From assembly GCA_964202995.1 (NCBI GenBank), contig CAXNKR010000001.1:794829-858828 (forward strand): a DNA stretch of 64,000 nt, in the 5' to 3' direction. The position numbers were made by a program, and so were the translations under genes. Origin of the DNA: Alphaproteobacteria bacterium (GTDB lineage Bacteria; Pseudomonadota; Alphaproteobacteria; Sphingomonadales; Sphingomonadaceae). This document shows positions 22,572-51,403 of the stretch, one piece after another. The stretch's first letter is position 1. Every line of letters starts with the position of its first letter. Below the pieces are notes generated by a model. That model was not told where the DNA came from and made no database searches. It was given only the letters and a program-made list of their open reading frames with translations.

Positions 22572-23195
22572 CTAAATTGCCTGAAACCCCTTGTTGTAGA
22601 TATGCCAAGTGAAAATCGCTGCGGCTCCGCGATGCGGACGCCAGCGTTCGGCGATGATGCGGATTTCTTTTTCCGATGGCCGCGCATCAAGCTTAAGCAA
22701 CCGACCAACGCCCTCTTGCACCGCAAGGTCGCCCGCTGGCCAAATATCGGGGCGGCCTTCGGCAAACAGCAGATATATCTCTGCTGACCAGCGGCCAATG
22801 CCCTTGACCTGCGTAAGATAGGCAATTGCCTCCTCATCATCATCGGGCAGGGCGTCGAGCGGCAATGCGCCTGACATCACAAGCTGCGCCAATGACCGCG
22901 CATAGCCCTGTTTCTGCCGACTAAGGCCGCAGGCCCGCAACGCATCGAAATCTTTCGCCAACAACTGGTCGGTCGGGCAATTAGCGCCCAGCAGGGCCTC
23001 TAGCTTGTTCCAGACCGATGCCGCCGACGCGACGCTGACCTGTTGTCCCAGAATCGTGCGCAGCAAGGTGGCGTATCCCCGCTGACTTATCCGTTCGTCA
23101 GGATAGCCTGTGATCGTGATGGCCTCTGCGATGCCGGGCTCAATCGCGGCCAGCGCATCAAGCGCGTCATGCAGTTGTTGTGCCGTTATGCCCAT
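22572..23195 (-). CDS. alkA: DNA-3-methyladenine glycosylase II (AlkA family)
   Basis: ILGQQVS, GLSRQK, HhH VKGIGRWSAE, PAGDLAV, WRPHR. Confidence 0.9.
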   Translation of the reverse strand: MGITAQQLHDALDALAAIEPGIAEAITITGYPDERISQRGYATLLRTILGQQVSVASAASVWNKLEALLGANCPTDQLLAKDFDALRACGLSRQKQGYARSLAQLVMSGALPLDALPDDDEEAIAYLTQVKGIGRWSAEIYLLFAEGRPDIWPAGDLAVQEGVGRLLKLDARPSEKEIRIIAERWRPHRGAAAIFTWHIYNKGFQAI

Positions 23196-23200
23196 GCGGC

Positions 23201-23962
23201 TTATGCGCCGCGGCGCACGGTGGCCGCGTATAAGGCGATTGCGGCAGCATTGGACACGTTCAGCGACTCCATCTGTGCGCTGATCGGCAATTTCGCCAAT
23301 TGGTCGCAATGCTCCTCAATATTGCGCCGCATGCCGTCACCTTCTGCGCCCAGCACCAGTGCATTGCGCCCCGGTGTCAGCGCCTGATCCAGCGAGACCT
23401 CTGCATGGCCGGACAGGCCGATTCGCCAATATCCAGCCTCGGCAATCTCCTCCAACGCCCGCGCCAGATTAACCACCCGTACCCATGGCGTAATTTCAAG
23501 CCCGCCCGACGCGGCCTTTGCCAATGCCCCCGATTCGGGTGGCGCGTGCCGGTCTTGCGTCACAACAGCCACCGCATCAAAGGCCGCCGCTGTCCGGAAT
23601 ATCGCGCCGACATTGTGCGGATCGGTGACTTGGTCGAGGATCAGCAGTGGTCGGTTATCGTCATTCGGCAGTGCGAGTGCATCAGTCAGCCAGACATCCT
23701 CCAGCGGTGCAACCTCAAGCACAAGACCCTGATGTGGAGCATCTTTCGGCACAAAACGTGCAAGATCGTTCACTTCGGCATATTGCACCGTCAGGCCCTC
23801 AGGCACGACAATCTTACCGATTTCTTCGCGCGTGCCCCATAAATTAATCAAGCGGCGTTCGGGATTGTCGAGCGCGGCATAGACGGCGTGCCGTCCGTAA
23901 AATTTGGGATTGCCGCTGGTAACGGCGGCGCCACGGCGTCGATGGCTCTTATGTGAAGACAT
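23201..23962 (-). CDS. rlmB: TrmH/SpoU RNA methyltransferase (RlmB-like)
   Basis: LDQVTDPHNVGAIFR, LGAEGDGMR, ESLNVSNAA. Confidence 0.9.
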   Translation of the reverse strand: MSSHKSHRRRGAAVTSGNPKFYGRHAVYAALDNPERRLINLWGTREEIGKIVVPEGLTVQYAEVNDLARFVPKDAPHQGLVLEVAPLEDVWLTDALALPNDDNRPLLILDQVTDPHNVGAIFRTAAAFDAVAVVTQDRHAPPESGALAKAASGGLEITPWVRVVNLARALEEIAEAGYWRIGLSGHAEVSLDQALTPGRNALVLGAEGDGMRRNIEEHCDQLAKLPISAQMESLNVSNAAAIALYAATVRRGA

Positions 23963-24107
23963 TATATGTACCTGTGTATGAAAAAGAGAAGCTTCTGTTG
24001 CCCTTTCCCACTTGAGGCATTGACAGGCAAGGGCCGTTTCGCCATTGCGCACCTTCTTCGGCGGGACCGGCCCTCATGCAAGCACATGATGCCCCGCACG
24101 ACGATGT

Positions 24108-24193
24108 GGACAGGTGGCCGAGTGGTTAAAGGCAGCAGACTGTAAATCTGCCCGGTTTTCCGTACGCTGGTTCGAATCCAGCCCTGTCCACCA
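24108..24193 (+). tRNA. tRNA-Tyr(GUA)
   Basis: GGACAGGTGGCCGAGTGGTTAAAGGCAGCAGACTGTAAATCTG...GGTTCGAATCCAGCCCTGTCCACCA; long variable arm. Confidence 0.97.
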
Positions 24194-24341
24194 ATTACTC
24201 GTTGGTCCATGTTTGCGAATATTCTTAGAAATCCAGTAAATCCATGGCTATGGCGCTCCTCAACGTCCACCCGCGGACAGTTGATTGTCTCATAGGAAGC
24301 TTATCTTTTCGCGACATGAACTTAAAAGCAGCGGCACGCTA

Positions 24342-25688
24342 TTATCGATCTGGACGACCCATCCATGACCGAAAAAGCGCATTGGGATCATAATTATTCC
24401 GCAAATTGTCAAGCCGTGCCAAATTCTCATCCTTCATGAATGGCGCCGCTCTTTTCCCAAGGTTTTCATCTGCTAACTGGATTCCAACGGCATGCGCCTG
24501 CATCGCGGCCATCCGCTCGGTAGCCCAATTGGCATAACGGTCATCATCTTCCCCGCGCGTCCATTCGCCGTAAACTGCAAGATAGCGGTTCGCTTCAAGC
24601 GAGAAGGCCATATCGGGTCGCTGTTGCAACGGATACCAGTTGAGCCAAAGGCTGTGGCTAGGCGCGGGCGGCATCGTCGCCGCAATCGCTCGCAGGCCGG
24701 GTAGTAGGTCGTCGATCGGCGCGTCGGTCCAAATATTATCGGTACACCAGCGCACGTCCGGCGGGAAATGGGTGATGTTGGCGGCCCGAGACATCAAACT
24801 CGTATTCATGGGCACAAGCGGGGTGGTGAAGCTCGCCAGCTTCCGGATTGGGCTATCGGAGATAAAACGTACCGCTTCGCGCGCGTCGGTCCAGCTGTCG
24901 GCAAGAACCGGCGCGATGACTTCAATGCCCGGCTGGAAGATGCCCAGCGCCTTAGGCGTGATGAGTATCTGAAATTCGATGGATTGGGGAACGGCGCTGC
25001 CGATGTCATCGGCCCAACGAAAGACCTGCTCCAGATGCCGTTGGCGAAAGACCTGCATCTTCAGCGCAGTGACGTTTTTGCGTGGGTGAAGCTTTAGGTG
25101 ATAGCGCAGCACTACCGCAAAGAAGCCCGGCCCTGATCCACGCGCGGCCCAGAACAAGTCGGCATTCTCGCTGGCGCTGGCATGGACCTGTCGACCATCG
25201 GCCAGCACCAGATCAATCCCGATCAAACTCTCGGTCGCCAGTCCCAGTTCGCGGCTGCCCCAGCCGAAACCGCCTTGCAGCAGAAACCCACCCATTGCGA
25301 CATCGGGTGCATGGGCGATGGGGAAGAACAGCCCGTGCTTTCGCAGCGCATTATCGAGGTCGAGCCCCCAACATCCGGGACCAACCAGAGCGATTCTAGT
25401 CACTGGATCAATGGTGATCTGGTTGAACCGTGCCATGCTCAGCAGCAGTCCGCCGTCGCGGATGTGGTTCTGCGCCCAGCTATGACCGCCCGAAACGATG
25501 CTGACCTGCCAGTGGTTCTCGCGCGCCAGTTGCAAGGCGGCCTGCACATCACCTACATCATTGGCCTCGACCAGATGTTCTGGCCGCACGCCGGGATCGC
25601 GGGCGTTAAAGCTGGTTGCGAGCACAGCCTTGTCGAAGCCGGCATCGCCACGCCGCCAAATCCTTCCTATGCCGCGTGGACGCTTCAT
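24342..25688 (-). CDS. FAD-binding oxidoreductase, BBE/VAO superfamily (6-hydroxy-D-nicotine oxidase-like)
   Basis: VSGGHSW flavinylation-type motif, GGFLLQGGFG, LFWAARGSG, C-terminal YDPNALF. Confidence 0.88.
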   Translation of the reverse strand: MKRPRGIGRIWRRGDAGFDKAVLATSFNARDPGVRPEHLVEANDVGDVQAALQLARENHWQVSIVSGGHSWAQNHIRDGGLLLSMARFNQITIDPVTRIALVGPGCWGLDLDNALRKHGLFFPIAHAPDVAMGGFLLQGGFGWGSRELGLATESLIGIDLVLADGRQVHASASENADLFWAARGSGPGFFAVVLRYHLKLHPRKNVTALKMQVFRQRHLEQVFRWADDIGSAVPQSIEFQILITPKALGIFQPGIEVIAPVLADSWTDAREAVRFISDSPIRKLASFTTPLVPMNTSLMSRAANITHFPPDVRWCTDNIWTDAPIDDLLPGLRAIAATMPPAPSHSLWLNWYPLQQRPDMAFSLEANRYLAVYGEWTRGEDDDRYANWATERMAAMQAHAVGIQLADENLGKRAAPFMKDENLARLDNLRNNYDPNALFRSWMGRPDR

Positions 25689-26506
25689 GCCTCTCGCTCA
25701 CGATAAGCAGCGCCAAATTCATCGAACAATTGCGGGAGGAAGCTCGCCAGATGCGCCATTTCTTGCGCATTATGGACAAGCAGGTCTGCCGGTGCGGGAA
25801 GAAGTTTGCTTGCAACCGGACGAATGGCTCTCGCCAATCCTCGTCTTATGGCACCGGGATTATCGCCCAGCGCTGTATTCTCGCCACCCATCCACATCCG
25901 TGAGCGCATTTCGCTGCCGCCCGCAACTGGGCGTAACTGGTGTAGAAGCCATCCGCCCTTGAGCGCAGTCCCAGGCACACCGACGCGCGCACAGATCACT
26001 ACTTCACCCTGAGCAGCCAGCCGATCTTGGTTAAAGCCCATAACAGCAGGCGGCACAAAGCCGATGGCCCCTTTCAAGACGCTTGGGCCAAGATACTCGG
26101 TGATCAGCGATGTCCGCCCGATATAGTTTTCGTCGTTGCGTCCGTCGGCCCAGCGCGCGTCGATATGGGCCTTTGGGTGCCACAGCTTATAGCGCTGCGC
26201 CTCGCAGCCGTGCCAGCCGAACCACCAGTCCCACATCTTAGGCGTTACACCCGGCATGTGGGTCAGGCAGAACACCCGGATCGCGCCGTCGGGCGGACAG
26301 GTATAGCCGGTCTCGACCAACCCATAGCCCGGCTCGATCATGTCGGCAGCGGCGCTAGAGGGCGGGAACAATTCATGCGCCTGTGGGCCGATCATAAGCG
26401 CCTCAGTAACTTGCGGCTGGAGCGGTGCAACCTCGGGATTGAAGAAGCTGGCATACGGGCTTTGCGCAAGCTCATCCGGCGCGTATCCAAGAAGCCGTTG
26501 CGTCAT
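25685..26506 (-). CDS. PhlG/phloretin hydrolase family C-C hydrolase (DAPG hydrolase domain)
   Basis: MWDWWFGWHG, RYKLWHPKAH, LITEYLG, LLHQLR, EMRSRMW, HNAQEMAHLASFLP; GGAGG 7 nt before ATG 26506. Confidence 0.88.
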   Translation of the reverse strand: MTQRLLGYAPDELAQSPYASFFNPEVAPLQPQVTEALMIGPQAHELFPPSSAAADMIEPGYGLVETGYTCPPDGAIRVFCLTHMPGVTPKMWDWWFGWHGCEAQRYKLWHPKAHIDARWADGRNDENYIGRTSLITEYLGPSVLKGAIGFVPPAVMGFNQDRLAAQGEVVICARVGVPGTALKGGWLLHQLRPVAGGSEMRSRMWMGGENTALGDNPGAIRRGLARAIRPVASKLLPAPADLLVHNAQEMAHLASFLPQLFDEFGAAYREREA

Positions 26507-26510
26507 AAGA

Positions 26511-27152
26511 TTATCCTCCGATGTCATTGGGGTTGGAATAAGCGGCCGCTAGCATAGGGCGCGATGTCTCGCTGCAATGCTGCAGCATCATCGCTAGCCA
26601 TGCGCGCCGGACCTGCGCCATGCTCTCGCGGTTGGAGAAGAACCCCGAACCCCACATGCCAAGCACCGCGAGGAGCGTGATCGCGAGGTGGCGGCCCAGC
26701 GACTGGGCATCTGTATCCGCGCGCAGTTCGCCATTGGAAATAGCGTGCGTCATTAAAACATAAGCCGATGCAACTGCGCGGTCGACGTTTGTGCTGCGAA
26801 CCTCCGGATGATCGGAGTTCATGATCGCGGCATAGATGCCGCGGTAATAGGTTTCATCGCTGTCGAAAAACGTCTCAATCTGCTCAAGCGCGCGCAATAT
26901 GCGCGCCATCGCCGCACCGTCAGCGCGGGCCGAACCCAATTGGGTGAATTTAAAAACTGCCTCATCCAGTAGTGCGATTAGCACATCGGTCTTTGATCCG
27001 AACAGGTTGTAGGGCGTGCGCAGGCTGACCCCGGCCACTACGGCCAAGCGACGCATTGTGAGATTGTCCATACCTTCGCTGCGAATAATCGATTCCGCCG
27101 CCGCACAAATGCGGGCTCGGTTGAATGTTTTGGCCTCTTCGCGTCTTGACAT
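26511..27152 (-). CDS. TetR/AcrR-family regulator
   Basis: ICAAAESII, LTMRRLAVVAGVSLRTPYNLFGSK helix-turn-helix. Confidence 0.92.
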   Translation of the reverse strand: MSRREEAKTFNRARICAAAESIIRSEGMDNLTMRRLAVVAGVSLRTPYNLFGSKTDVLIALLDEAVFKFTQLGSARADGAAMARILRALEQIETFFDSDETYYRGIYAAIMNSDHPEVRSTNVDRAVASAYVLMTHAISNGELRADTDAQSLGRHLAITLLAVLGMWGSGFFSNRESMAQVRRAWLAMMLQHCSETSRPMLAAAYSNPNDIGG

Positions 27153-27239
27153 ACTGACGCCTTGAGTATTTTTATAACATGTGTCAATAATATTGTCCGT
27201 TTAATGGTGTGTGGATGACAAAAGGGAGGGTTGCAGCCG

Positions 27240-28457
27240 ATGCCGCAGGATCGAATGACCTTAAGAAAGGTCGCAAAGTGGTTCGGCTGGTCGATGATCG
27301 CGATGGCGGTAATCGTATTCACGGCGTGGGCGACATCGCCCGATCCACGGTTCAATCCAGCGAGCTTTGAGGACAAGCCACTTGTTCAGGGCCTCGCCCC
27401 GCTTGAGCAGGCTATCACGCTTGCGCAGTTCCGTGCGCCGAATGGCGACACGCACACGTTGCTGGTGCTCGGCCGGGAAGGGGAGAGTGTTACTGGTATC
27501 GACCTAGCCGAACTCGGTGCCCCGGCGACAGCCGATCCGTTTGCGGCGCTGGCTGCTGCCAACATGGCCCCAGTATTGGCAGGGCGCGCTGGCACGATGT
27601 CGAAGGTCACGATAGCAATAAGTGATCTGCTGCCATCTGGCACGGCTGGTACCCGCCAGATTGGTACTGGCACCAATTTCCCCGAACACGCAGCAGAGGC
27701 CGATAGCAGCGCCGTGTTCCAGTTCCCCAAATTCGGTCCAGCCTCTCCTGCACGCACCCGGGTGCAGGCTCCAGAGGGCACCCTGCTCGATTATGAGGTC
27801 GAGATTTGCGTCCGTTTTGACCGGACATTGCGAACGGCCGAGGACTTTGACTTAGCGGTAAAGGCGTTCTTCCTGTGCGGCGATTTCACCAATCGCAACG
27901 CGCTTATCAACTTGGCTGATCCGGACAATCTCGATTCAGGCAGCGGCTTTAGCGATGCCAAGAGCGGGCCCGATTTCTTCCCAACCGGCCCTTTTCTTGT
28001 TATTCCCAGAGACTGGAAAGCATTTGTTGCCAACATCCGCATGACGACCGCCATTAACGATGCGCCACGCCAAGACGCGCGCGGCAGCGAGATGACGCTC
28101 GACTTCCGAGCGCTTGCGCTAAAGGCCTTCACGGATATGACCAAATCGCGGTTTCTCTATCGTGGCAGCTATACCAAGCTCATGCCCGATGGCGCAATCC
28201 CGCCGACCGCCACATTGATGTCTGGAACGGCTGAGGGCACGATCTTTACCCCACCAACGCGCAGCGACCTGATTGATGCGGCGTTCGCTTATGTGATTGC
28301 GGGCGGTCCAATGGCGCGCCAATCACCGATGGACATCGCCCGCGGGAAATTTATCGCCAACGAACTCGCTGGCGGCCATTTCCTGCAGCCAAACGATGTG
28401 GTGCGCCATCGTTCGAACGTCCTTGGCGACATCGTCATCACGGTTGTCCGACCCTGA
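27240..28457 (+). CDS. Fumarylacetoacetate hydrolase family protein with N-terminal membrane anchor/signal
   Basis: GTNFPEHA, LDYEVE, DFTNR, KSGPDFFPTGP, MSGTAEG; N-terminal hydrophobic WFGWSMIAMAVIVFTAWA. Confidence 0.85.
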   Translation: MPQDRMTLRKVAKWFGWSMIAMAVIVFTAWATSPDPRFNPASFEDKPLVQGLAPLEQAITLAQFRAPNGDTHTLLVLGREGESVTGIDLAELGAPATADPFAALAAANMAPVLAGRAGTMSKVTIAISDLLPSGTAGTRQIGTGTNFPEHAAEADSSAVFQFPKFGPASPARTRVQAPEGTLLDYEVEICVRFDRTLRTAEDFDLAVKAFFLCGDFTNRNALINLADPDNLDSGSGFSDAKSGPDFFPTGPFLVIPRDWKAFVANIRMTTAINDAPRQDARGSEMTLDFRALALKAFTDMTKSRFLYRGSYTKLMPDGAIPPTATLMSGTAEGTIFTPPTRSDLIDAAFAYVIAGGPMARQSPMDIARGKFIANELAGGHFLQPNDVVRHRSNVLGDIVITVVRP

Positions 28458-28673
28458 TCCAATTGCTTGGGTAGTAATGCATTGTTCTTTTCCCCAGCGG
28501 TTAGTGCCAGCTCTATGTGTAAAGGATGTTATCCTCGCCCGACTTTGCCGTTGCGGATAGGTAGACTTTGGTCTTAGCTTGGGATGCGCCTATGTTCGAC
28601 TTAAGTCGGGGAGCAGATGGATACAGTCTGAATTGTTCTTAAGTAGACATGACAATTTTAGGGAGAAGGCAAA

Positions 28674-30611
28674 ATGTCGGAAATCTATCCTGTTTCGGAT
28701 GATTGGAAGAAAAAGGCGTTTGTTACGGCGGAAGGTTACAACGCTGCTTATGCCCAGTCCATCAGCGATCCGGATACCTTCTGGCGCGCGGAGGCCAAGC
28801 GCCTCGACTGGATGACTCCGTTCACCAAAGTGAAGAATACGAGTTTTCACGAAACGGATTTCGGCATCAAATGGTTTGAGGATGGCGCGTTGAACGTTTC
28901 CGCCAACTGCATTGATCGCCATTTGCCCGAACGCAAAGATGATATCGCAATCATCTGGGAAGGCGATGATCCCTCGCAGCAACGGCGGATCACGTTTGGC
29001 GAGCTGCATGCCGAAGTCTGCGTGATGGCCAACGCCTTGAAGGCATTAGGCGCACAAAAGGGCGACCGCATCACGATCTATATGCCGATGATTCCCGAAG
29101 CCGCGATGGCGATGCTCGCCTGCACCCGCATTGGGGCAATCCATTCTATCGTATTTGGCGGCTTTTCGCCCGAGGCGCTTGCGGGGCGCATTCAGGATTG
29201 CGATTCCAATATTGTCATCACTGCCGATGCCGGAATGCGCGGTGGGAAGCTGGTTCCGTTGAAGCAGAATGTGGACGCGGCGCTGACGCATTGCGCGTCG
29301 GTTAAGGCGTGCCTTGTGATGCGCCATGTTGGAAACGACATCACCATGCAAGGGGTGCGCGACGTCTGGTATCACGATATTCGGACAACGGTCTCAAGCG
29401 ACTGCGAACCCGAAATCATTGGCGCAGAAGACCCGCTGTTCATATTATATACGTCGGGTTCGACCGGAAAACCAAAGGGCGTATTGCACACCACCGGCGG
29501 GTATCTGGTATGGGCCGCGATGACGCATCATTATGTGTTCAACTATACGCCGGGCGAAGTGTATTGGTGTGCCGCCGACATTGGCTGGGTGACTGGCCAT
29601 AGCTATGTCGTTTACGGTCCGCTTGCGAACGGTGCGACGACCGTGATGTTTGAAGGGGTTCCCAATTATCCCGACCACAGCCGGTTCTGGCAAATTGTTG
29701 ACCGGCATCAAGTCAATATTTTCTATGGCGCGCCAACGGCCTTGCGGTCATTAATGCGCGAAGGCGATGATTGGGTGAAGCAAACCTCCCGCAGTTCGCT
29801 GCGTTTGCTGGGGTCGGTCGGCGAACCGATCAATCCGGAGGCATGGGAGTGGTATTATCATGTCGTCGGCGAAGGCCGCTGTCCGATTGTTGACACCTAT
29901 TGGCAGACCGAAACGGGCGCGACGATGATGACGCCTTTACCGGGTGCACATGCCTTGAAACCGGGCGCAGCATCAAAAGCCATGTTTGGCGTGCAGCCAG
30001 TGCTTGTCGACGGCGACGGCAAAGTGCTGGAAGGCGCCACGGACGGCAATTTGTGCATGATCGATAGCTGGCCGGGTCAGATGCGCTCCGTCTGGGGCGA
30101 TCATGAACGGTTTTTCCAAACCTATTTCACCACTTATCCCGGCAAATATTTCACTGGAGATGGATGCCGGCGAGATGCGGACGGGGATTATTGGATTACG
30201 GGACGGGTTGACGACGTGATTAATGTTTCGGGCCACCGCATGGGCACGGCCGAAGTCGAAAGCGCACTCGTCGCCCATGCCAAAGTCGCCGAGGCGGCGG
30301 TGGTGGGTTTCCCGCACGACATTAAAGGGCAGGGCATTTACGCCTATGTAACGCTCAATGCGAATGAGGTGGGGTCAGCTGATATCCGGGCCGACCTCAT
30401 CAAATGGGTGCGCCATGAAATCGGCCCGATCGCAACGCCAGATGTCATCCATTTTGCCCCTGCTTTGCCGAAAACACGCTCCGGAAAAATCATGCGCCGG
30501 ATATTGCGCAAGATTGCCGAAGGGGATGTGTCTAATTTAGGAGATATCTCGACCCTTGCGGATCCGTCGGTCGTGGACAATCTAGTGCAATCAAGGTCCT
30601 CCGCCGCGTAA
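28674..30611 (+). CDS. acs: Acetyl-CoA synthetase
   Basis: [44 protein letters not shown]. Confidence 0.97.
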
Positions 30612-43836: not shown

Positions 43837-43921
43837 GCGGGCGTGGCGGAATTGGTAGACGCACCAGATTTAGGTTCTGGCATCGCAAGGTGTGGGGGTT
43901 CGAGTCCCTTCGCCCGCACCA
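43837..43921 (+). tRNA. tRNA-Leu(UAG)
   Basis: GCGGGCGTGGCGGAATTGGTAGACGCACCAGATTTAGGTTCTGG...GTTCGAGTCCCTTCGCCCGCACCA; upstream of tig. Confidence 0.97.
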
Positions 43922-44014
43922 CGAAAAAGGGATGTCCCCGGCTGTCGTTGAACCCGAAAGCCATTTAACAGTTTTTGGCAGGCCATCGGGCCTGTCGTAG
44001 ATAGAGAAGAAAAC

Positions 44015-45514
44015 ATGCAGACCGTCGAGACACAGAATGAAGGCCTGAAGCGCGCTTATCGCATGACGATTACCGCAAAGGACGTTGAATCCCGCATCGA
44101 TGCCGAGGTGAAGAAAATTGCACCTCAAGTGCGTATGCCCGGTTTCCGTGCCGGTAAGGTTCCCGCCAATCTGGTCAAGAAAATGCACAAGGACTCGCTG
44201 CTTCAGGACGCGCTGAACAGCTCGATTCAAGAAGGCGTCCAAAAGACGATTTCGGATAACAAATTGCGTCCAGCGACTCAGCCACATGTGCATCTCGATG
44301 ACGATTATGCGCCGGGTAAAGACGCGGTTGTCGATTTTCATCTCGAAATCCTGCCGATCATTGCAGCGCCGTCGATCGACGGCATCACGCTTGACCGCCT
44401 GACCGTCGAAGTCAGCGACGCACAAGTCGATGAATCGATCCTGAAGCTTGCCGAAGGGCAAAAGAGCTTTGAAGCGGCCGACAAGAAATATGCTGCCAAA
44501 ATGGGCGACAGCGTCGTTATCGATTTTGAAGGCAAGGTCGACGGCATGCCTTTCGAAGGCGGTAAGGGCGAAGGCATGGCCGTTGAGCTTGGCTCTGGTC
44601 AGTTGATCCCCGGTTTCGAAGACCAGTTGGTTGGCGTGAAAGCCAATGACGAAAAGGTTCTGAACGTAACCTTCCCCGAAGATTATAATGCCGAAAACCT
44701 GAAGGGTAAGGCGGCAACTTTTGACATCGTCGTCAACGAAGTGCGCAAGCCGGTTGAAGCCAAGGCAGATGACAATTTGGCCAAGATGTTCGGCCTGGAC
44801 GGCATCGACAAATTGCGTGAATTGATGAAGGTTCAGGTTGAACAAGAACATAACGGCCTGACGCGCACCTATATGAAGCGCCAGTTGCTGGATCAGCTTG
44901 CCGCCGGTCATGATTTCGAAGTGCCGCCTTCAATGGTCGAAGCCGAATTCGAACAGATTTGGATGCAATTGGAGCAGGAAGCTGCCCGCGAAGAAGACGC
45001 CGAAGCTGCGAAAAAGGAAATGGAAGCCGAGCGCGAAGAGTATCGCGATATCGCCGTCCGCCGCGTTCGCTTGGGCTTGCTCCTCTCGGAAATTGGCCAA
45101 GCCAATGGTGTTGAAGTCAGTTCGCAGGAAATGAACATGCTCGTGCAGCAAGCTGCGCAGCAATATCGCCCTGAAGACCGTCAGCGTTTCGTGCAATATC
45201 TGCAGGAAAACTTAATGGCAGCCGCTCAGCTTCGTGCACCGATGTTTGAAGACAAGGTTGTCGACTTCCTGTTCGACAAGGCGACCGTGACGGACAAGAC
45301 CGTGACCAAGGACGTGCTTGAAGCCGCCATTGAAGCTGAACCAGATGCACAGCCTGCCGATAAGAAAAAGGCACCTGCAAAAAAGGCAGCCGCAAAAGAC
45401 GAAGCGCCTGCCAAGGAAGCCAAGCCTGCTGCGAATAAAGCTGCCCCTAAAAAGGACGCTGATGCCGCGCCAGCCAAAAAGGCACCCGCCAAAAAGGCTG
45501 CACCTAAGAAATAA
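44015..45514 (+). CDS. tig: Trigger factor with a Lys/Ala/Pro-rich C-terminal tail
   Basis: PGFRAGKVP, FKBP-type FEGG...IPGFEDQL, VTFPEDY. Confidence 0.96.
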   Translation: MQTVETQNEGLKRAYRMTITAKDVESRIDAEVKKIAPQVRMPGFRAGKVPANLVKKMHKDSLLQDALNSSIQEGVQKTISDNKLRPATQPHVHLDDDYAPGKDAVVDFHLEILPIIAAPSIDGITLDRLTVEVSDAQVDESILKLAEGQKSFEAADKKYAAKMGDSVVIDFEGKVDGMPFEGGKGEGMAVELGSGQLIPGFEDQLVGVKANDEKVLNVTFPEDYNAENLKGKAATFDIVVNEVRKPVEAKADDNLAKMFGLDGIDKLRELMKVQVEQEHNGLTRTYMKRQLLDQLAAGHDFEVPPSMVEAEFEQIWMQLEQEAAREEDAEAAKKEMEAEREEYRDIAVRRVRLGLLLSEIGQANGVEVSSQEMNMLVQQAAQQYRPEDRQRFVQYLQENLMAAAQLRAPMFEDKVVDFLFDKATVTDKTVTKDVLEAAIEAEPDAQPADKKKAPAKKAAAKDEAPAKEAKPAANKAAPKKDADAAPAKKAPAKKAAPKK

Positions 45515-45536
45515 TCTCTGCATCAAACATTGCAGC

Positions 45537-45568
45537 AAAAAGGGGGATGCGATGCGTCCCCCTTTTTT
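45537..45568 (+). terminator. Intrinsic terminator after tig
   Basis: AGGGGGATGC-GAT-GCGTCCCCCT followed by TTTTT. Confidence 0.8.
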
Positions 45569-45729
45569 ATCGTCATAACAATGGCGGCTTGTTGTTAGAC
45601 ATATTCGCGACAGAAACGTACACATCTATTAAAGCACTAAAAATATAAGAAATAATCGAATTAGGGAACGGTGGAGCCGCAGCGTGCGACGAAGCTTCCA
45701 ACTCATCCCCAAACTAAACCGTTTTCGTG

Positions 45730-45758
45730 CTTGAAACTTTGCTTGCCCACGCCGATGT
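45730..45758 (+). promoter_or_regulatory. Putative RpoH (sigma32) promoter of clpP
   Basis: CTTGAA-N15-GCCGATGT resembles CTTGAA-N13/17-CCCCATNT. Confidence 0.45.
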
Positions 45759-45797
45759 AGGCGGTAACGCATAAACATAACATCTTAGAGGTATTTC

Positions 45798-46430
45798 ATG
45801 CACGTTCCTTTTGATCCCGTCCAAGCTTTGGTTCCCGTCGTTATCGAGCAATCGAACCGTGGGGAGCGCAGCTGGGACATTTTTTCGCGGCTTTTACGAG
45901 AACGGATCATTTTCGTGACGGGCGAAGTGGAGGACAATATGGCCTCCGTCATCACGGCGCAGCTGTTGTTTCTCGAATCGGATAATCCGAAGAGAGACAT
46001 CTGGATGTATATTAACTCGCCCGGCGGTGTGGTCACTGCGGGCATGGCGATACATGACACAATGCAGTATATCCGTCCGAAAGTCGGCACCGTATGCATT
46101 GGGCAGGCGGCTTCAATGGGCAGTTTCCTGCTTGCGGCGGGCGAGCCGGGCATGCGCGTCGCTTTGACCAATTCGCGTATCATGGTGCATCAGCCTTCCG
46201 GCGGCGCACGCGGCATGGCGTCGGATATCCAGATTCAGGCAAATGAAATCTTACGTATTCGCAAGCGTATGAATGACCTATATGCAAAATATACAGGTAA
46301 GCCATTGAAGGATATAGAAAAAGCTATGGACCGCGATACCTTCCTTGAAGCGGACGAGGCAAAGGCCTTTGGCCTAGTAGACGAGGTATTTGACAAGCGC
46401 CCGGCAAATGCAGAAGCCGACGCAAGCTGA
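45798..46430 (+). CDS. clpP: ATP-dependent Clp protease proteolytic subunit
   Basis: [35 protein letters not shown]. Confidence 0.97.
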
Positions 46431-46563
46431 CACTAGCGGGGTCATTTTGGCAGATTTGCCTTCATGGCACAGTCCGCATTGGGCTATTGCTTAATCGGAC
46501 CGCATCTTTAGGATACTGGGGCTTTAATGTGCTTTTAAAATTGGCGTGCATACAGGACATATT

Positions 46564-47835
46564 ATGACGAAGTTGAGCGGTTCAGATACGAAAAGTACCC
46601 TTTATTGCTCTTTCTGCGGAAAATCGCAGCATGAAGTGCGCAAGTTGATCGCTGGCCCTACAGTGTTCATCTGTGATGAATGTGTTGAACTTTGCAATGA
46701 TATCATTCGCGAAGAAACAAAGGGCGCCTTGAATGGCCGTAAAGAGGGCGAAGTGCCCACGCCGCAGGAAATCTGCGAGGTATTGGACGACTATGTCATT
46801 GGTCAACCGCAGGCAAAACGCGTATTGTCGGTTGCCGTGCATAACCATTATAAACGCCTCAACCATGGCGCAAAGGGCGCGGATGTTGAGCTTGCGAAGT
46901 CCAACATCCTGCTCGTCGGCCCCACAGGTTGCGGTAAGACATTATTGGCACAAACGCTGGCTAAGACCTTCGACGTGCCGTTTACGATGGCAGACGCAAC
47001 GACATTGACGGAGGCCGGCTATGTCGGTGAAGACGTAGAGAATATCATTCTCAAGCTGCTGCAAGCATCCGATTATAATGTCGAAAAGGCGCAGCGCGGC
47101 ATTGTGTATATCGACGAAATCGACAAAATCAGCCGCAAGGCCGAAAATCCTTCCATCACTCGCGATGTCAGCGGGGAGGGCGTTCAACAGGCGCTGCTCA
47201 AGCTCATGGAAGGCACAACGGCCAGCGTCCCGCCACAGGGCGGTCGCAAGCATCCACAGCAAGAGTTTCTGCAGGTCGATACGACGAACATCTTGTTCAT
47301 CTGCGGCGGTGCATTTGCCGGGCTTGAAAAGATTATTTCAAATCGTCTTGAGGGCAAGTCGATTGGTTTTGGCGCGCATGTTGCTGACCCGGACGAGCGT
47401 CGTACTGGCGAAATCCTCAAGCAGGTCGAACCTGAAGACCTGTTGAAATTTGGTCTAATCCCCGAATTCGTCGGACGCTTGCCGGTAACCGCTACGCTTG
47501 AAGACCTTGACACCGCGGCGTTGGTGAAAATTCTCTCGGAACCCAAAAATGCGCTTGTGAAGCAATATCGCAAGCTGTTTGAAATGGAAGATGTCGGCCT
47601 AAGCTTCACCGATGATGCGTTGGAAGCCATCGCCAAGAAGGCGATTGAACGCAAAACCGGTGCGCGTGGCCTGCGATCCATTCTTGAGGCGATTTTGCTG
47701 GATACGATGTTCGACCTGCCGACCTATGACGGTGTGGACGAGGTTGTGGTGGATAAGGACGTCGTCGAGGGTCGCAAGACCCCTGTTTTGGTATATGCCA
47801 AGTCCGCCAAGGCCAGCAAAGAAGACGCCGCTTAA
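46564..47835 (+). CDS. clpX: Clp protease ATPase ClpX
   Basis: CSFCGKSQ zinc finger, [11 protein letters not shown] motif, IGF loop. Confidence 0.97.
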
Positions 47836-48088
47836 GCAAAGGCTCAATTGACTGTGGCAAATAAGCCACGTTCGCTGACAAAATAATGTCAATCCATGGC
47901 GTGCCGTAACGCAAAACCTTGCGTGTGGAGTGCCGTCGGGGTGCAGCTACCCATACGGGCGTACGATTGTCATTTTATTGACATTTACCAGTTCCATCAG
48001 GGGGGCCGTTCCTAGTCGCGCGCCGACTTGCCGATCTTCTCTGCGCACGCAAAACCGTAGGAACTACAATTTTCTAAGGGGTATGTTT

Positions 48089-51000
48089 ATGCAAGTCCGT
48101 TTTTATCTCGCTGCTAGTGCTGCTGCGTTGTCGGTGGCTTCAGTTCTCGCAACGCCTGCTTTCGCGCAAGAGACCACTTCATCTGTTCGTGGAACCGTTG
48201 AAAGCGATACCGGTCCAGTTGCTGGCGCGACGGTAACGATTGTCCATGAGCCGTCTGGCACGACATCAACAAGTTTGACCGACGACGCGGGTAACTTTAG
48301 CGCAAGTGGTCTTCGTGTTGGCGGACCTTTCACAGTAAGTGTTGACGCAAGCGGTTACGAGACTGCTCAGGTAACTGACCTATCCTTGAGCGCTGGCCAA
48401 AGCTTTCGCCTTCCCGTTGTTCTTCAAACACAACGCGAGATCGTAGTTACCGCCTCTGCTCTTCGCGGTGCGACTGAGACAAGTAATGGACCAACATCTG
48501 CTTTTAATCGCGAGGATATTGAGGGTGTTGCGTCGATTAACCGTGATATTCGCGATGTTGCACGGCGTGATCCATTTGTGACTATTGACCTTTCGAACAG
48601 CCGTACGATCGAAGTCGCTGGCCAAAATGGCCGCTTAAATCGCTTCTCTGTTGACGGCGTTCAATTCTCGGATGATTTTGGCTTGAATAACGGCGGTCTG
48701 CCCACCTCACGCGGTCCTGTGCCGTTTGACGCAATTGAGCAGCTTTCCGTCAAAGTGGCACCTTTTGACATTTCGGAAGGCGACTTTCAGGGAGGCGCAA
48801 TTAACGTCGTTCTGAGGTCTGGCGGAAACAACTTCTCGGGTTCGGCCTTTTACACGTACACCGACGAAAGTCTGACGGGCGACAAAACACGTGACCGCAA
48901 AGTCGCATTGAAATTTGACTCGAAGCAATATGGCGGGATTATTTCTGGGCCAATCGTAAAGGACAAGTTGTTCTTTATGTTTGGTTATGAAAAAACGAAG
49001 GAGTCGGATCCGTTTGATGATGGTGTGGGCTCCGGTTATGCCAATCAGGTACCAGGCGTCACACAAGCGCAAATCGATCAGGTTAGCGCGATTGCACAAT
49101 CGGTATATGGTTACGATACACTTGGCCAAATCCAAAATGCCGTTGAACAAGACGAGAAATACGTCGCCAAATTGGATTGGAACATCAACGAAGACCACCG
49201 TGCTTCGGTAACGTACATCCGCAACGTTGGGACGCAACAGTTCCAGCAAAATACATTCGTCACCGGAAGCGCCCCTTATGCGATAGGTTTGTTTTCGAAC
49301 GGATATGAACTTGGTGAGGAAGTGAACTCAGGCGCGTTTCAGCTCAACTCGCAATGGACTGACACATTTTCAACCGAAGTCCGGGCGTCCTATCGCGACT
49401 ATAACCGCGACCAAACGCCTTTCGGTGGCCGAGAATTCTCTCAGGTTGAGGTTTGCCTGGACCCAACTTCAGTGGTCAGCGGTGCAAGTACCCGCACCTC
49501 TTGCGGCAGTTCGCGTGTATTCTTCGGACCTGACGTCAGCCGTCATTCGAATGATTTGAATACCGATAACCTCTCAATCGATTTTACAGCACGGAAAGAT
49601 GCGGGAAGCCATCGTATTAAGGCGACCTTTGGCTATTCAAAAATCAACACCTTCAACCTTTTCCTGCAAAGGTCATTGGGTGATTATTACTTTGACTCGA
49701 TAGCCGACTTCCAAAATCGCGTTGCAAGCCGTCTTCGCTTCGGCGCAGCCGTTCCAAGTCTTGATGCGAATGACGCGGCAGCCAATTTCAGCAGCAGTGC
49801 TTACACATTTGGTATCCAAGATGATTGGGAAGTATTGCCAAATTTGGAAATGAACTTCGGTTTCCGTTATGATTTATATGAAAATCCAACGGCCGTGGCG
49901 TTGAATACCAATTTCCTTACACGCCAGAATTTCCCGAACACCAATACCTTCAATGGTGAGGGCGTGTTCCAACCGCGATTTGGGTTTAACTGGCAGGCGT
50001 CAGATCGTCTCGTCGTTCGCGGTGGGATTGGTATTTTCGCGGGTGGAACACCTGATGTGTTCCTGTCAAACAGCTATTCGAACACCGGACAGCGGACAAA
50101 TGCCATCGACATATCGCGTGACTCTTCGGAGGCGACTTGTAACGTGTCTCCGGCTAACCCAACCTTGTGTGCGGCGGCCCTTACCGGCGTGACAGGACAG
50201 ATACCGTCAACCGTTGGTGCATTTGCCGCGACCAACACTGCATCCCTGGCAGCTGCACCCGTCAACGCAATTGATCCCGATATTTCGACCGCACGTCAGG
50301 CGCGTGCAACCTTGTCTGTCAACTATGATGCGGATCTCGGACCGCTTGGCGATGGCTGGCTGTTTGGCGTTGATGCGCTTTATGGTGATGTTATCGAGGC
50401 GTATCAGTGGACTGACGCGCGTTCGGTTGTCATCGGCACGCTTCCCGATGGCCGCCCCCGTTATGCGCCTTTGGGCGGAACTGCGACCACCAACCAAGAT
50501 TTGTTAATGACCAATGACCAGCGCGGTCGTTCTTATATCGGCGTTGCACGATTGGCTAAGTCTTGGGATTGGGGTCTGGCGGTCAATGCCAGCTACACCC
50601 GTTCGGACGTTAAAGACACCAACGCCATCACTTCGGCCACAGCAGGTTCTTTGTATTCGAACAATGCGTTCTCCAATCCAAATTTTGCAGCCTACGGTAC
50701 CTCGATTTATCAAATCAAGGACCAGTGGAAATTTGGCGTCGATTTCAACAGAGCGTTCTTCGGTGAAAACAAAACTCGCCTGTCACTCTTTGGCGAATAT
50801 CGCTCAGGCCGGCCTTACAGCCTGACTATGAACGATAAGACGTCAGGTCGGTCAGCAGTGTTCGGCACTGTAGGGAATGGCAGCCGTCACCTCCTTTATG
50901 TACCAACTGTTGGTGATAGCCGTGTATCATTTGCTTCATCGGCGAACGAGACAGCGTTTAATGCACTTGTAGATAAGCTTAAGATCGGCAAATATCGCGG

Positions 51001-51379
51001 GACGATCTTGGGCAAGAATACGCAACAGTCGCCAGATTTCTTCAAAATTGATGTTTCAATCAGCCAAGAGCTCCCACTGATTGTAGGCAACTCTAAACTG
51101 CGCCTGTTTGCAGACATTGAGAATGTGCTGAACATGATCAATAAGGATTGGGGTTCATTGCGTCAGGTATCGTTCCCGCAGACAGCTGCTCTCGTCTCGG
51201 TACAATGCCTAACCACCGCTGTTGCAACTGGTACAACGCCGGGTTCTGGCGTTGTAAACACTGCTTCGACACAAAATTGTGCGCAATTTAGGTACTCTGA
51301 CGTGCTTGCCCCAAGCGAAGCGCTGGTGTCGCGGCAGTCGCTCTACGGCGTTCGTGTTGGCGTGAAGCTTAGCTTCTAA
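48089..51379 (+). CDS. Oar-like TonB-dependent receptor with N-terminal carboxypeptidase-regulatory-like domain
   Basis: Signal peptide ending PAFA, GLRVGGPF, EIVVTA TonB box, GGAINVVLRSG, C-terminal KLSF. Confidence 0.93.
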   Translation: MQVRFYLAASAAALSVASVLATPAFAQETTSSVRGTVESDTGPVAGATVTIVHEPSGTTSTSLTDDAGNFSASGLRVGGPFTVSVDASGYETAQVTDLSLSAGQSFRLPVVLQTQREIVVTASALRGATETSNGPTSAFNREDIEGVASINRDIRDVARRDPFVTIDLSNSRTIEVAGQNGRLNRFSVDGVQFSDDFGLNNGGLPTSRGPVPFDAIEQLSVKVAPFDISEGDFQGGAINVVLRSGGNNFSGSAFYTYTDESLTGDKTRDRKVALKFDSKQYGGIISGPIVKDKLFFMFGYEKTKESDPFDDGVGSGYANQVPGVTQAQIDQVSAIAQSVYGYDTLGQIQNAVEQDEKYVAKLDWNINEDHRASVTYIRNVGTQQFQQNTFVTGSAPYAIGLFSNGYELGEEVNSGAFQLNSQWTDTFSTEVRASYRDYNRDQTPFGGREFSQVEVCLDPTSVVSGASTRTSCGSSRVFFGPDVSRHSNDLNTDNLSIDFTARKDAGSHRIKATFGYSKINTFNLFLQRSLGDYYFDSIADFQNRVASRLRFGAAVPSLDANDAAANFSSSAYTFGIQDDWEVLPNLEMNFGFRYDLYENPTAVALNTNFLTRQNFPNTNTFNGEGVFQPRFGFNWQASDRLVVRGGIGIFAGGTPDVFLSNSYSNTGQRTNAIDISRDSSEATCNVSPANPTLCAAALTGVTGQIPSTVGAFAATNTASLAAAPVNAIDPDISTARQARATLSVNYDADLGPLGDGWLFGVDALYGDVIEAYQWTDARSVVIGTLPDGRPRYAPLGGTATTNQDLLMTNDQRGRSYIGVARLAKSWDWGLAVNASYTRSDVKDTNAITSATAGSLYSNNAFSNPNFAAYGTSIYQIKDQWKFGVDFNRAFFGENKTRLSLFGEYRSGRPYSLTMNDKTSGRSAVFGTVGNGSRHLLYVPTVGDSRVSFASSANETAFNALVDKLKIGKYRGTILGKNTQQSPDFFKIDVSISQELPLIVGNSKLRLFADIENVLNMINKDWGSLRQVSFPQTAALVSVQCLTTAVATGTTPGSGVVNTASTQNCAQFRYSDVLAPSEALVSRQSLYGVRVGVKLSF

Positions 51380-51403
51380 GCTACTCTAAACCGAACTAAA
51401 AAC

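Follow-up and report, generated by a model that had tools for sequence, protein, structure and literature searches.

What is the function of a compact block of four genes in the genome of an alphaproteobacterium of the family Sphingomonadaceae, and which of the four belong together? The block encodes a TetR-family regulator, a hydrolase related to PhlG, an oxidase linked to flavin adenine dinucleotide (FAD) and a protein of the FAH family of hydrolases. It lies in a stretch of 64,000 nucleotides (nt) from GenBank assembly GCA_964202995.1 (contig CAXNKR010000001.1, positions 794,829 to 858,828 of the forward strand), which we call the window. An earlier note, made from the sequence of the window, had proposed a four-gene module in which an oxidase and two enzymes that cleave carbon-carbon (C-C) bonds degrade or detoxify an acyl-phloroglucinol, dihydrochalcone or beta-diketone. 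We find that the conserved core consists of two genes, those of the hydrolase and the oxidase, and not four, and that the locus combines known kinds of enzymes and is not a new kind of system. A role in the catabolism or detoxification of polyphenols or aryl ketones is the one best supported by the sequence comparisons. In the form that we favor, with modest confidence, the block would be a small cassette for catabolism or detoxification, horizontally mobile and repressed by TetR, in which the oxidase and then the hydrolase bring about the aryl-ketone cleavage of acylated polyphenols.

The case for a two-gene core comes from the arrangement of related loci. A profile-guided scan of approximately 186,000 genomes, one per species, identified at least 550 with a relative of the hydrolase, and the best 80 loci were surveyed, 61 of them assessable in having enough sequence on both sides. 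The hydrolase and oxidase genes are adjacent in 65 of the 80 loci (51 of the 61 assessable ones), so the arrangement is far beyond chance; conservation statistics rule out a fortuitous adjacency of unrelated genes. By record titles, the pair is present in Sphingomonadales, Caulobacterales, Zavarzinia, Comamonadaceae/Limnohabitans and Halieaceae, as well as in other Gammaproteobacteria, a planctomycete metagenome-assembled genome (MAG) and Mycobacterium. In the window the stop codon of the hydrolase gene and the start codon of the oxidase gene share the ATGA at 25685-25688, as read directly in the sequence, and this 4-bp overlap recurs in independent gene calls, even where the order of the two genes is swapped. 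In a reciprocal check, two homologues of the oxidase (62-64% identity), examined blind, both proved to adjoin PhlG-like and TetR genes. A TetR-family gene of some type is found no more than 1.5 kb from the pair in 37 of 51 loci, and IclR genes take the regulator position in several others. The FAH gene is linked to the pair in 11 of the 80 loci, in at least four gene orders across Alpha- and Gammaproteobacteria. The co-occurrence that the earlier note had named as a check thus holds for the hydrolase, oxidase and TetR genes and is narrower for the FAH gene. Likewise, its four-gene module survives as a 4.19-kb unit shared between genomes, within which the conserved core is two genes, accompanied by a regulator, with the FAH gene optional.

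The hydrolase covers positions 7-222 of the 223 in the DAPG_hydrolase profile, PF18089, and its best matches among solved structures are the Mycobacterium abscessus phloretin hydrolase (5xe5; E=5e-42, 34% identity) and PhlG (3hwp; E=3e-27, 30% identity). The motifs reported earlier, WHPxxH, TEY, HQ and HxxxEMxHL, are all found in its translation (as WHPKAH, TEY, HQ and HNAQEMAHL). With phloretin hydrolase (M. abscessus 5xe5/5xey; Phy of Eubacterium ramulus) it shares not only the PF18089 domain but also the positions of the metal ligands and of the catalytic His and Tyr, and the same hydrolysis of an acyl-aryl C-C bond would be expected of it; with PhlG it shares the fold, the family and the positions of the four zinc ligands. 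To our knowledge, studies of the PhlG family are limited to two members, each of them active on acyl-phloroglucinols.

An alignment of 78 members of the clade with both reference enzymes shows where the window hydrolase departs from them. Residues H114, E137, H245 and E249 (numbering of the 273-aa protein) are invariant in 78 of 78 members and align with what we take to be the zinc ligands of PhlG, His129, Glu160, His270 and Glu274 (numbering of He et al. 2010). On the 3hwp chain that numbering (native+8) falls exactly on four conserved residues. Tyr121, His214, Tyr229 and Asn132 are, we assume, the residues of PhlG that contact the substrate or take part in catalysis. All 78 members keep the equivalents of Tyr121 and His214, but not those of Tyr229 and Asn132. 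At the position of Tyr229, which is Tyr in both characterized enzymes, the window hydrolase has Met; across the clade, 75 of the 78 members have Phe or Met there and the remaining three Ile or Val, and none has Tyr. The equivalent of Asn132 is Ala or Val. Judged by these residues, the catalytic machinery is intact and the substrate pocket is probably different. Because of both features, and because identity reaches only 30-34%, we place the hydrolase in a third, uncharacterized subfamily of the PhlG/phloretin hydrolase family. Orthology to phloretin hydrolase is ruled out at 34% identity, and orthology to PhlG by the 30% identity, the lack of a phl locus and a score of 86.7 bits against the NCBIfam PhlG equivalog NF047887, whose cut-off of 600 is not reached. 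Since the replacement is clade-wide, 2,4-diacetylphloroglucinol (DAPG) and phloretin are not obvious substrates. As an aside, a metagenomic protein of 344 aa (P0109) joins an SDR domain (PF13561) to a DAPG_hydrolase domain, a fusion that hints at a redox step beside a C-C hydrolase as a general theme.

The oxidase matches EncM over its full length (E=4e-31, residues 15-441, approximately 25% identity), and its FAD domain aligns with many BBE-like oxidases. EncM His78, the site of covalent FAD attachment, aligns with the His of SGGHSW in the oxidase. The C-termini of the two proteins also align, and a by-eye reading of the motif PIAHAPDVAMGG places Ala at the position of the BBE cysteine; a monocovalent FAD would be expected. 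The C-terminal BBE domain PF08031 (residues 407-440, E=0.028) scores 14.9 bits, below its cut-off of 20.6. The term "BBE-type", as it had been applied to this protein, is thus borne out in part, by the full-length alignment with EncM and BBE-like enzymes, the BBE domain itself being below threshold. On these alignments, the protein is best classed as a VAO/BBE-like oxidase or oxygenase, translationally coupled to the hydrolase; the two coupled proteins might act as a complex. Its FAD_binding_4 domain is common to the BBE-like flavoenzymes (EncM, enzymes of the Clz9/Tcz9 type, AknOx, GilR, TamL and 6-hydroxy-D-nicotine oxidase), but it apparently lacks a second (Cys) flavin link and its gene stands outside a polyketide biosynthetic cluster. 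Bacterial BBE-like enzymes mostly oxidize alcohols, and EncM is a 1,3-diketone oxygenase that acts through a flavin-N5-oxide; we know of no sequence motif that is diagnostic for the latter chemistry. The Val at the "gatekeeper" position of the window oxidase is, we presume, a sign of reactivity with O2.

A pairing of hydrolase and flavoenzyme was not found in the literature on PhlG and phloretin hydrolase for either characterized enzyme. Pseudomonas phlG is accompanied by the TetR regulator PhlH, and the hydrolase gene of the window likewise adjoins a TetR-family gene. A nearer parallel may be found in mycobacteria. Rv1775 of M. tuberculosis has been described as a PhlG-like C-C hydrolase that shares approximately 28% identity with PhlG and with the M. 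abscessus enzyme (PMC8562490). The annotation of Rv1774 is that of a probable oxidoreductase resembling FAD-dependent cytokinin oxidase. In the mycobacterial loci of our survey (L065, L067, L071, L074, L077 and L079) an oxidase and a hydrolase gene are likewise paired. Their products are 44-51% identical to the window proteins, and the identity of these hydrolases to the M. abscessus enzyme is similarly low. Letting these loci stand in for strain H37Rv, we infer from the sequences that the pair of the window is of the Rv1774/Rv1775 type, and the hydrolase subfamily is probably that of Rv1775. The mycobacterial pair differs in its inverted order, with the oxidase first, and in having IclR instead of the window type of TetR in some loci. 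A literature search found no functional study of the hydrolase-oxidase pair or of Rv1774-Rv1775. The curcumin beta-diketone hydrolase CurH is thiolase-like and unrelated.

The FAH protein is of a different standing. A search of the PDB at the sequence level returned zero matches. Its AlphaFold (AF2) model (pLDDT 74) has a helix at residues 3-32, an extra N-terminal beta domain and two long low-confidence insertions, and Foldseek matched it with probability 1.0 to HpcE, YisK, maleylpyruvate hydrolase, fumarylpyruvate hydrolase and FAHD1, at approximately 15% identity and with template modeling (TM) scores of 0.6-0.74 on the target. Among 29 homologues the residues H150, E153, E186, E188, D215 and K241 are invariant, in the motifs NFPEH.E, DYEVE, D215, K241 and SGT.EG; we take these residues, by comparison of motifs, to be a His/Glu dyad, a Glu-Glu-Asp metal site and the Lys. 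The fold and the catalytic motifs are therefore those of the FAH superfamily, from whose members the window protein is set apart by the insertions, the low identity and its N-terminus. There a basic stretch is followed by a hydrophobic helix and a near-invariant AWA/TSPDP junction, which we read, with the help of the model, as a Sec signal peptide or an N-in membrane anchor. If so, the catalytic domain would lie outside the cytoplasm; neither the hydrolase nor the oxidase has a leader of this sort. We know of no exported member of the FAH superfamily that has been characterized.

Linkage of the FAH gene to the pair takes several forms (L012/L088, L021, L087, L090). The gene may be (i) divergent from tetR, as in the window; (ii) directly 3' of the oxidase gene, in NOR5-3 and Atopomonas; (iii) placed after a sulfatase gene, in Alterisphingorhabdus coralli; or (iv) the last of a GST-DUF6640-FAH series divergent from tetR, in an Erythrobacter. 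We regard it as a real but lineage-restricted accessory. Two further observations concern this gene. In Microbulbifer (L085 6001-7730; L086 1689-3418) the gene for an exported FAH-like protein stands apart from any such pair, with a gene for a DoxX-family membrane protein after it, and in a marine MAG (L008 8892-9458) only an FAH-like fragment (112 bits, approximately 190 aa) adjoins tetR, which looks like a decayed copy.

Other genes accompany the pair in particular lineages. In marine relatives a secreted sulfatase is encoded directly downstream of the oxidase, and a GST of 285-297 aa, a DUF6640 protein or a membrane protein of 139 aa, and an MFS transporter are added. In Betaproteobacteria the partners are a FadL/TodX porin, a GST-like protein, an AMP-dependent ligase (acyl-CoA ligase), an enoyl-CoA hydratase and a nitroreductase. 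Such accessory genes would fit a pathway that breaks down a phenolic compound, hydrophobic or sulfated. A search of the whole window for the marine set (sulfatase, GST, DUF6640, MFS and the 139-aa membrane protein) returned no orthologue. We rejected a role in biosynthetic tailoring: no polyketide synthase or nonribosomal peptide synthetase is encoded within approximately 4 kb, and none recurs beside the pair in the surveyed loci.

Some relatives of the hydrolase have other surroundings. Paralogues in L020, L033 and L035 lack the oxidase and have a FadL/TodX porin alongside, and those in L061, L063, L075 and L080 adjoin an SDR gene and a large protein, which to our eye resembles a penicillin or acyl-homoserine lactone acylase. 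Three betaproteobacterial MAGs (L040, L045 and L046) have a tandem duplication of the hydrolase gene. A contig binned as Opitutaceae (L010 1-2012) carries a pair 81-83% identical to the window proteins, which is closer than taxonomy predicts; the contig is either mis-binned or the product of a recent transfer.

In the window, tetR is the first gene of the minus-strand operon, and its orthologues adjoin the pair in L001-L006, L008, L012, L081-84, L087, L088 and L090. The TetR protein reached no NCBIfam equivalog cut-off. The spacer between tetR and the divergent FAH gene is 87 nt long, and within it one block is conserved across six loci in which the remainder of the spacer has diverged (Table 1). 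Promoter-like hexamers are found at 27162-27191(+) and 27215-27187(-), and the conserved block overlaps both. From its position, it is likely to be the TetR operator, laid over divergent promoters. Parts of the oxidase, hydrolase and tetR genes are represented in freshwater metatranscriptomes by contigs with 90-95% identity to the window, and one of 709 nt, from a close relative, spans the hydrolase/oxidase junction (25401-26109); none of these contigs covers the FAH gene.

The block appears to move as a unit. Its DNA is 92% identical to the metagenome contig L081 and 91.6% identical to L001, with unrelated flanks, and the similarity begins approximately 37 nt past the oxidase stop codon and ends approximately 32 nt past the FAH stop codon. 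Because this discrete 4.19 kb is shared between unrelated flanks, we conclude that the block has been relocated as a unit. In L081-L084 and L001 its neighbors are GST/peptidase M28 genes on one side and thioredoxin-TPR/Lon-N genes on the other, and no tRNA gene is close by. The position between tRNA-Tyr and acs is therefore peculiar to the present genome and is no feature of the module. In a search for an empty site, the flanking genes of L081/L001 were looked for in the window, and none of them was found there. The host is a sphingomonad of fresh water; the block occurs in lake and river metagenomes, and the best match among genomes is a Sphingorhabdus MAG. In one lake metagenome, which contains the exact sequence of the window, a DNA contig of 246 nt matches 23999-24193 at 99% and diverges after the 3' end of tRNA-Tyr (24193) into unrelated TTTGCGCTCTTATTCC..., and the block-carrying contig of the same metagenome starts at 24271, which hints that the tRNA-Tyr site varies between strains. 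An island inserted at tRNA-Tyr was considered and rejected, there being no integrase open reading frame (ORF), no att-like direct repeats beyond chance length and no inverted ends. A stretch of lower GC content that follows tRNA-Leu (43837-51400) was likewise dismissed as an island, since it encodes tig (trigger factor), clpP, clpX and a TonB-dependent receptor.

The cassette that we favor would work as follows. On a polyhydroxylated aromatic ring, or a cyclic 1,3-dione ring, the flavoenzyme would oxidize a benzylic alcohol or methylene to give an aryl ketone, and the hydrolase would cut the acyl-aryl C-C bond of that ketone by retro-Friedel-Crafts hydrolysis. The products would be a polyphenol and a carboxylic acid, the latter passing to CoA activation where the genes are present. 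TetR would bind the block between the divergent promoters and be released in the presence of the substrate. The FAH enzyme, exported or anchored, would be a lineage-specific accessory, working next to the secreted sulfatase in marine relatives; it would act on the substrate or product in a 1,3-dicarbonyl or 2,4-diketo-acid form. PhlG and phloretin hydrolase cleave acyl-phloroglucinols; for the window enzymes, the natural substrates are most likely acylated or sulfated polyphenols of plant or algal origin, present in dissolved organic matter, and probably not DAPG or phloretin themselves.

Several points weigh against this proposal. Which of the two reactions comes first is a guess, and the closest solved relative of the oxidase, EncM, is a 1,3-diketone oxygenase and not an alcohol oxidase. 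With Tyr229 and Asn132 replaced throughout the clade, the ring may be no phloroglucinol at all. The window holds no accessory genes for uptake or downstream steps, so the full pathway is not encoded here. The FAH gene, present in so few of the loci, is also found alone elsewhere, and the predicted leader probably puts its product in a different compartment from the hydrolase and the oxidase. That separation weakens the notion of two C-C-cleaving enzymes in one cytoplasmic pathway; of the three-enzyme scheme proposed earlier, the catabolic character agrees with the accessory genes of the relatives, and the partnership of the FAH enzyme is what suffers. The evidence for expression is weak, in that the RNA contigs come from relatives at 90-95% identity and DNA carry-over is possible.

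The first of these points leads to the most serious competitor, which reverses the order of events and comes close to the three-enzyme pathway of the earlier note: the hydrolase would free a phloroglucinol-like ring or cyclic triketone from an acylated precursor, the EncM-like flavoenzyme would oxygenate or dearomatize this electron-rich 1,3-dicarbonyl ring, and the FAH enzyme would hydrolyze the resulting beta-diketone. EncM, the best full-length solved match, does oxygenate a 1,3-diketone, although the identity is low, and FAH-fold hydrolases acting on fumarylpyruvate, maleylpyruvate and 2,4-diketo-3-deoxyrhamnonate do cleave 1,3-dicarbonyls. The gene orders of NOR5-3 and Atopomonas, with FAH directly after the oxidase, also suit such a sequence, as does the pairing of GST and FAH genes in L087, reminiscent of maleyl/fumaryl pathways. 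However, the conserved signal or anchor of the FAH enzyme makes a place of action outside the cytoplasm probable, and most loci with the pair lack the FAH gene. Because it is apparently exported and so often absent, we rate the reversed order lower; it is possible, but we doubt it.

Resistance, in which the two enzymes would inactivate a toxin that is not metabolized further, seems less likely again. Here the substrate would be an antimicrobial acyl-polyphenol or beta-triketone released by competitors, algae or plants, and TetR would sense the toxin. Such a role agrees with a small, self-contained, mobile unit under TetR control in a genome without downstream catabolic genes. It also has a precedent, which the literature confirms in outline, in the TetR-controlled conversion by PhlG of DAPG to the less toxic monoacetylphloroglucinol. 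Set against this, the acyl-CoA ligase, enoyl-CoA hydratase, FadL porin and MFS transporter genes of relatives suggest the use of the substrate as a source of carbon, and detoxification in any case overlaps with the cassette that we favor. That the likeness to PhlG extends to the fold only, and that the substrate is a lipid- or steroid-derived cyclic diketone or a signal (a 2-acyl- or dialkyl-cyclohexanedione or a resorcinol), we consider very improbable: the loss of the Tyr229 and Asn132 equivalents, the lipid or cholesterol-ring substrates proposed for Rv1775 (PMC8562490) and the FadL, acyl-CoA ligase and enoyl-CoA hydratase neighbors in Betaproteobacteria are matters in its favor, but the same paper states that Rv1775 keeps the residues that recognize phloroglucinol, the arylsulfatase-type neighbors in marine loci point to phenol sulfates, and there is zero positive evidence for any specific non-aromatic substrate.

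The interest of the pair reaches beyond this genome. We would suggest, tentatively and with rather little confidence, that the pair constitutes an undescribed two-enzyme system for oxidative C-C cleavage, present in the genomes of hundreds of species and probably including Rv1774-Rv1775, which would act on a substrate class beyond the acyl-phloroglucinols, with the clade-wide change of Tyr to Phe/Met as its mark, and which in some lineages would have the first known exported FAH-fold partner. Expression of the hydrolase subfamily is almost always tied to that of a BBE/EncM-like flavoenzyme, usually under a regulator of the TetR or IclR type. Bacterioplankton of lakes and coasts commonly carry the subfamily (Sphingomonadales, Limnohabitans and other Comamonadaceae, Caulobacter and Halieaceae), and it could mark the turnover of plant- or alga-derived polyphenols in dissolved organic matter. 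The same pair is found in mycobacteria, with a likely counterpart in M. tuberculosis to which no function is assigned. Retro-Friedel-Crafts hydrolases and BBE-like oxidases are both wanted as biocatalysts, and a compact version of 4.2 kb, with its own regulator and a candidate operator, offers a convenient system in which to find the substrate.

The positions of the features are collected in Table 1. The general layout given in the earlier note (four ORFs, the packing on the minus strand, the ATGA overlap, the divergent FAH gene and the bounds at tRNA-Tyr and acs) was confirmed in the sequence in every respect; we would revise two of the gene starts. A Shine-Dalgarno sequence, GGAGGA, lies 7-8 nt upstream of the hydrolase ATG at 26506, and the resulting 273 aa is the length of the homologues and of the gene calls on related contigs. 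This ATG is most likely the translation start, and a gap of 4 nt would then follow the tetR stop codon, in place of an overlap. The FAH gene most likely starts at the ATG at 27240, to give 405 aa as in its homologues.

Table 1. Positions of features in and around the four-gene block; coordinates are those of the window unless a locus is named
Feature	Position	Strand	Description
Four-gene block, 4.19 kb	24303/24305-28489		Start and stop of DNA homology shared with L081, L001, L002, L003, L004
FAD oxidase	24342-25688	-	448 aa; PF01565 FAD_binding_4, 102 bits (101.9; cut-off 26.4)
PhlG-like hydrolase, longest ORF	25685-26527	-	PF18089 DAPG_hydrolase, 179 bits (179.3; cut-off 22.7)
PhlG-like hydrolase, revised start (most likely)	25685-26506	-	273 aa; Shine-Dalgarno sequence and homologue lengths
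TetR-family regulator	26511-27152	-	213 aa; PF00440 TetR_N, 30.2 bits (cut-off 24)
Conserved intergenic block, candidate operator	27162-27190		TTGA(A/G)T..TTATAACATGTGTCAAT(A/T)A; conserved across six loci
FAH-family gene, longest ORF	27231-28457	+	PF01557 FAA_hydrolase, 53.4 bits (cut-off 23.9)
FAH-fold enzyme, revised start (most likely)	27240-28457	+	405 aa; homologue lengths
FAH N-terminal signal peptide/anchor (predicted)	residues 1-31, nt 27240-27332	+	
tRNA-Tyr(GTA)	24108-24193	+	ARAGORN and Rfam; outside module
Weak terminator-like hairpin	24329-24341	-	Just past oxidase stop codon; pattern match
Marine module extensions	L087 24-1748, 4674-6004; L090 6399-7256, 10209-12244; L088 11495-14611		

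The hairpin is the sole terminator-like site within 24000-28800. The tRNA-Tyr gene ends 148 nt before the oxidase stop codon, acs starts at 28674, and the tRNA was the only match in a search for regulatory RNAs. Within approximately 4 kb on each side the neighbors are ccmAB, an SDR gene, a glycosylase gene, trmH, tRNA-Tyr, acs, a LacI gene and ald. No phl biosynthesis genes (phlACBD), phlF, phlE or phlH were found within the same distance either side of the block, and the earlier statement that phlACBD is absent stands, the neighbors being housekeeping genes. On the minus strand, the longest ORFs of the DNA glycosylase-like gene (22572-23309) and the TrmH-like methyltransferase gene (23201-24052) overlap by approximately 109 nt, and the true start of the glycosylase-like gene is probably downstream of 23309.

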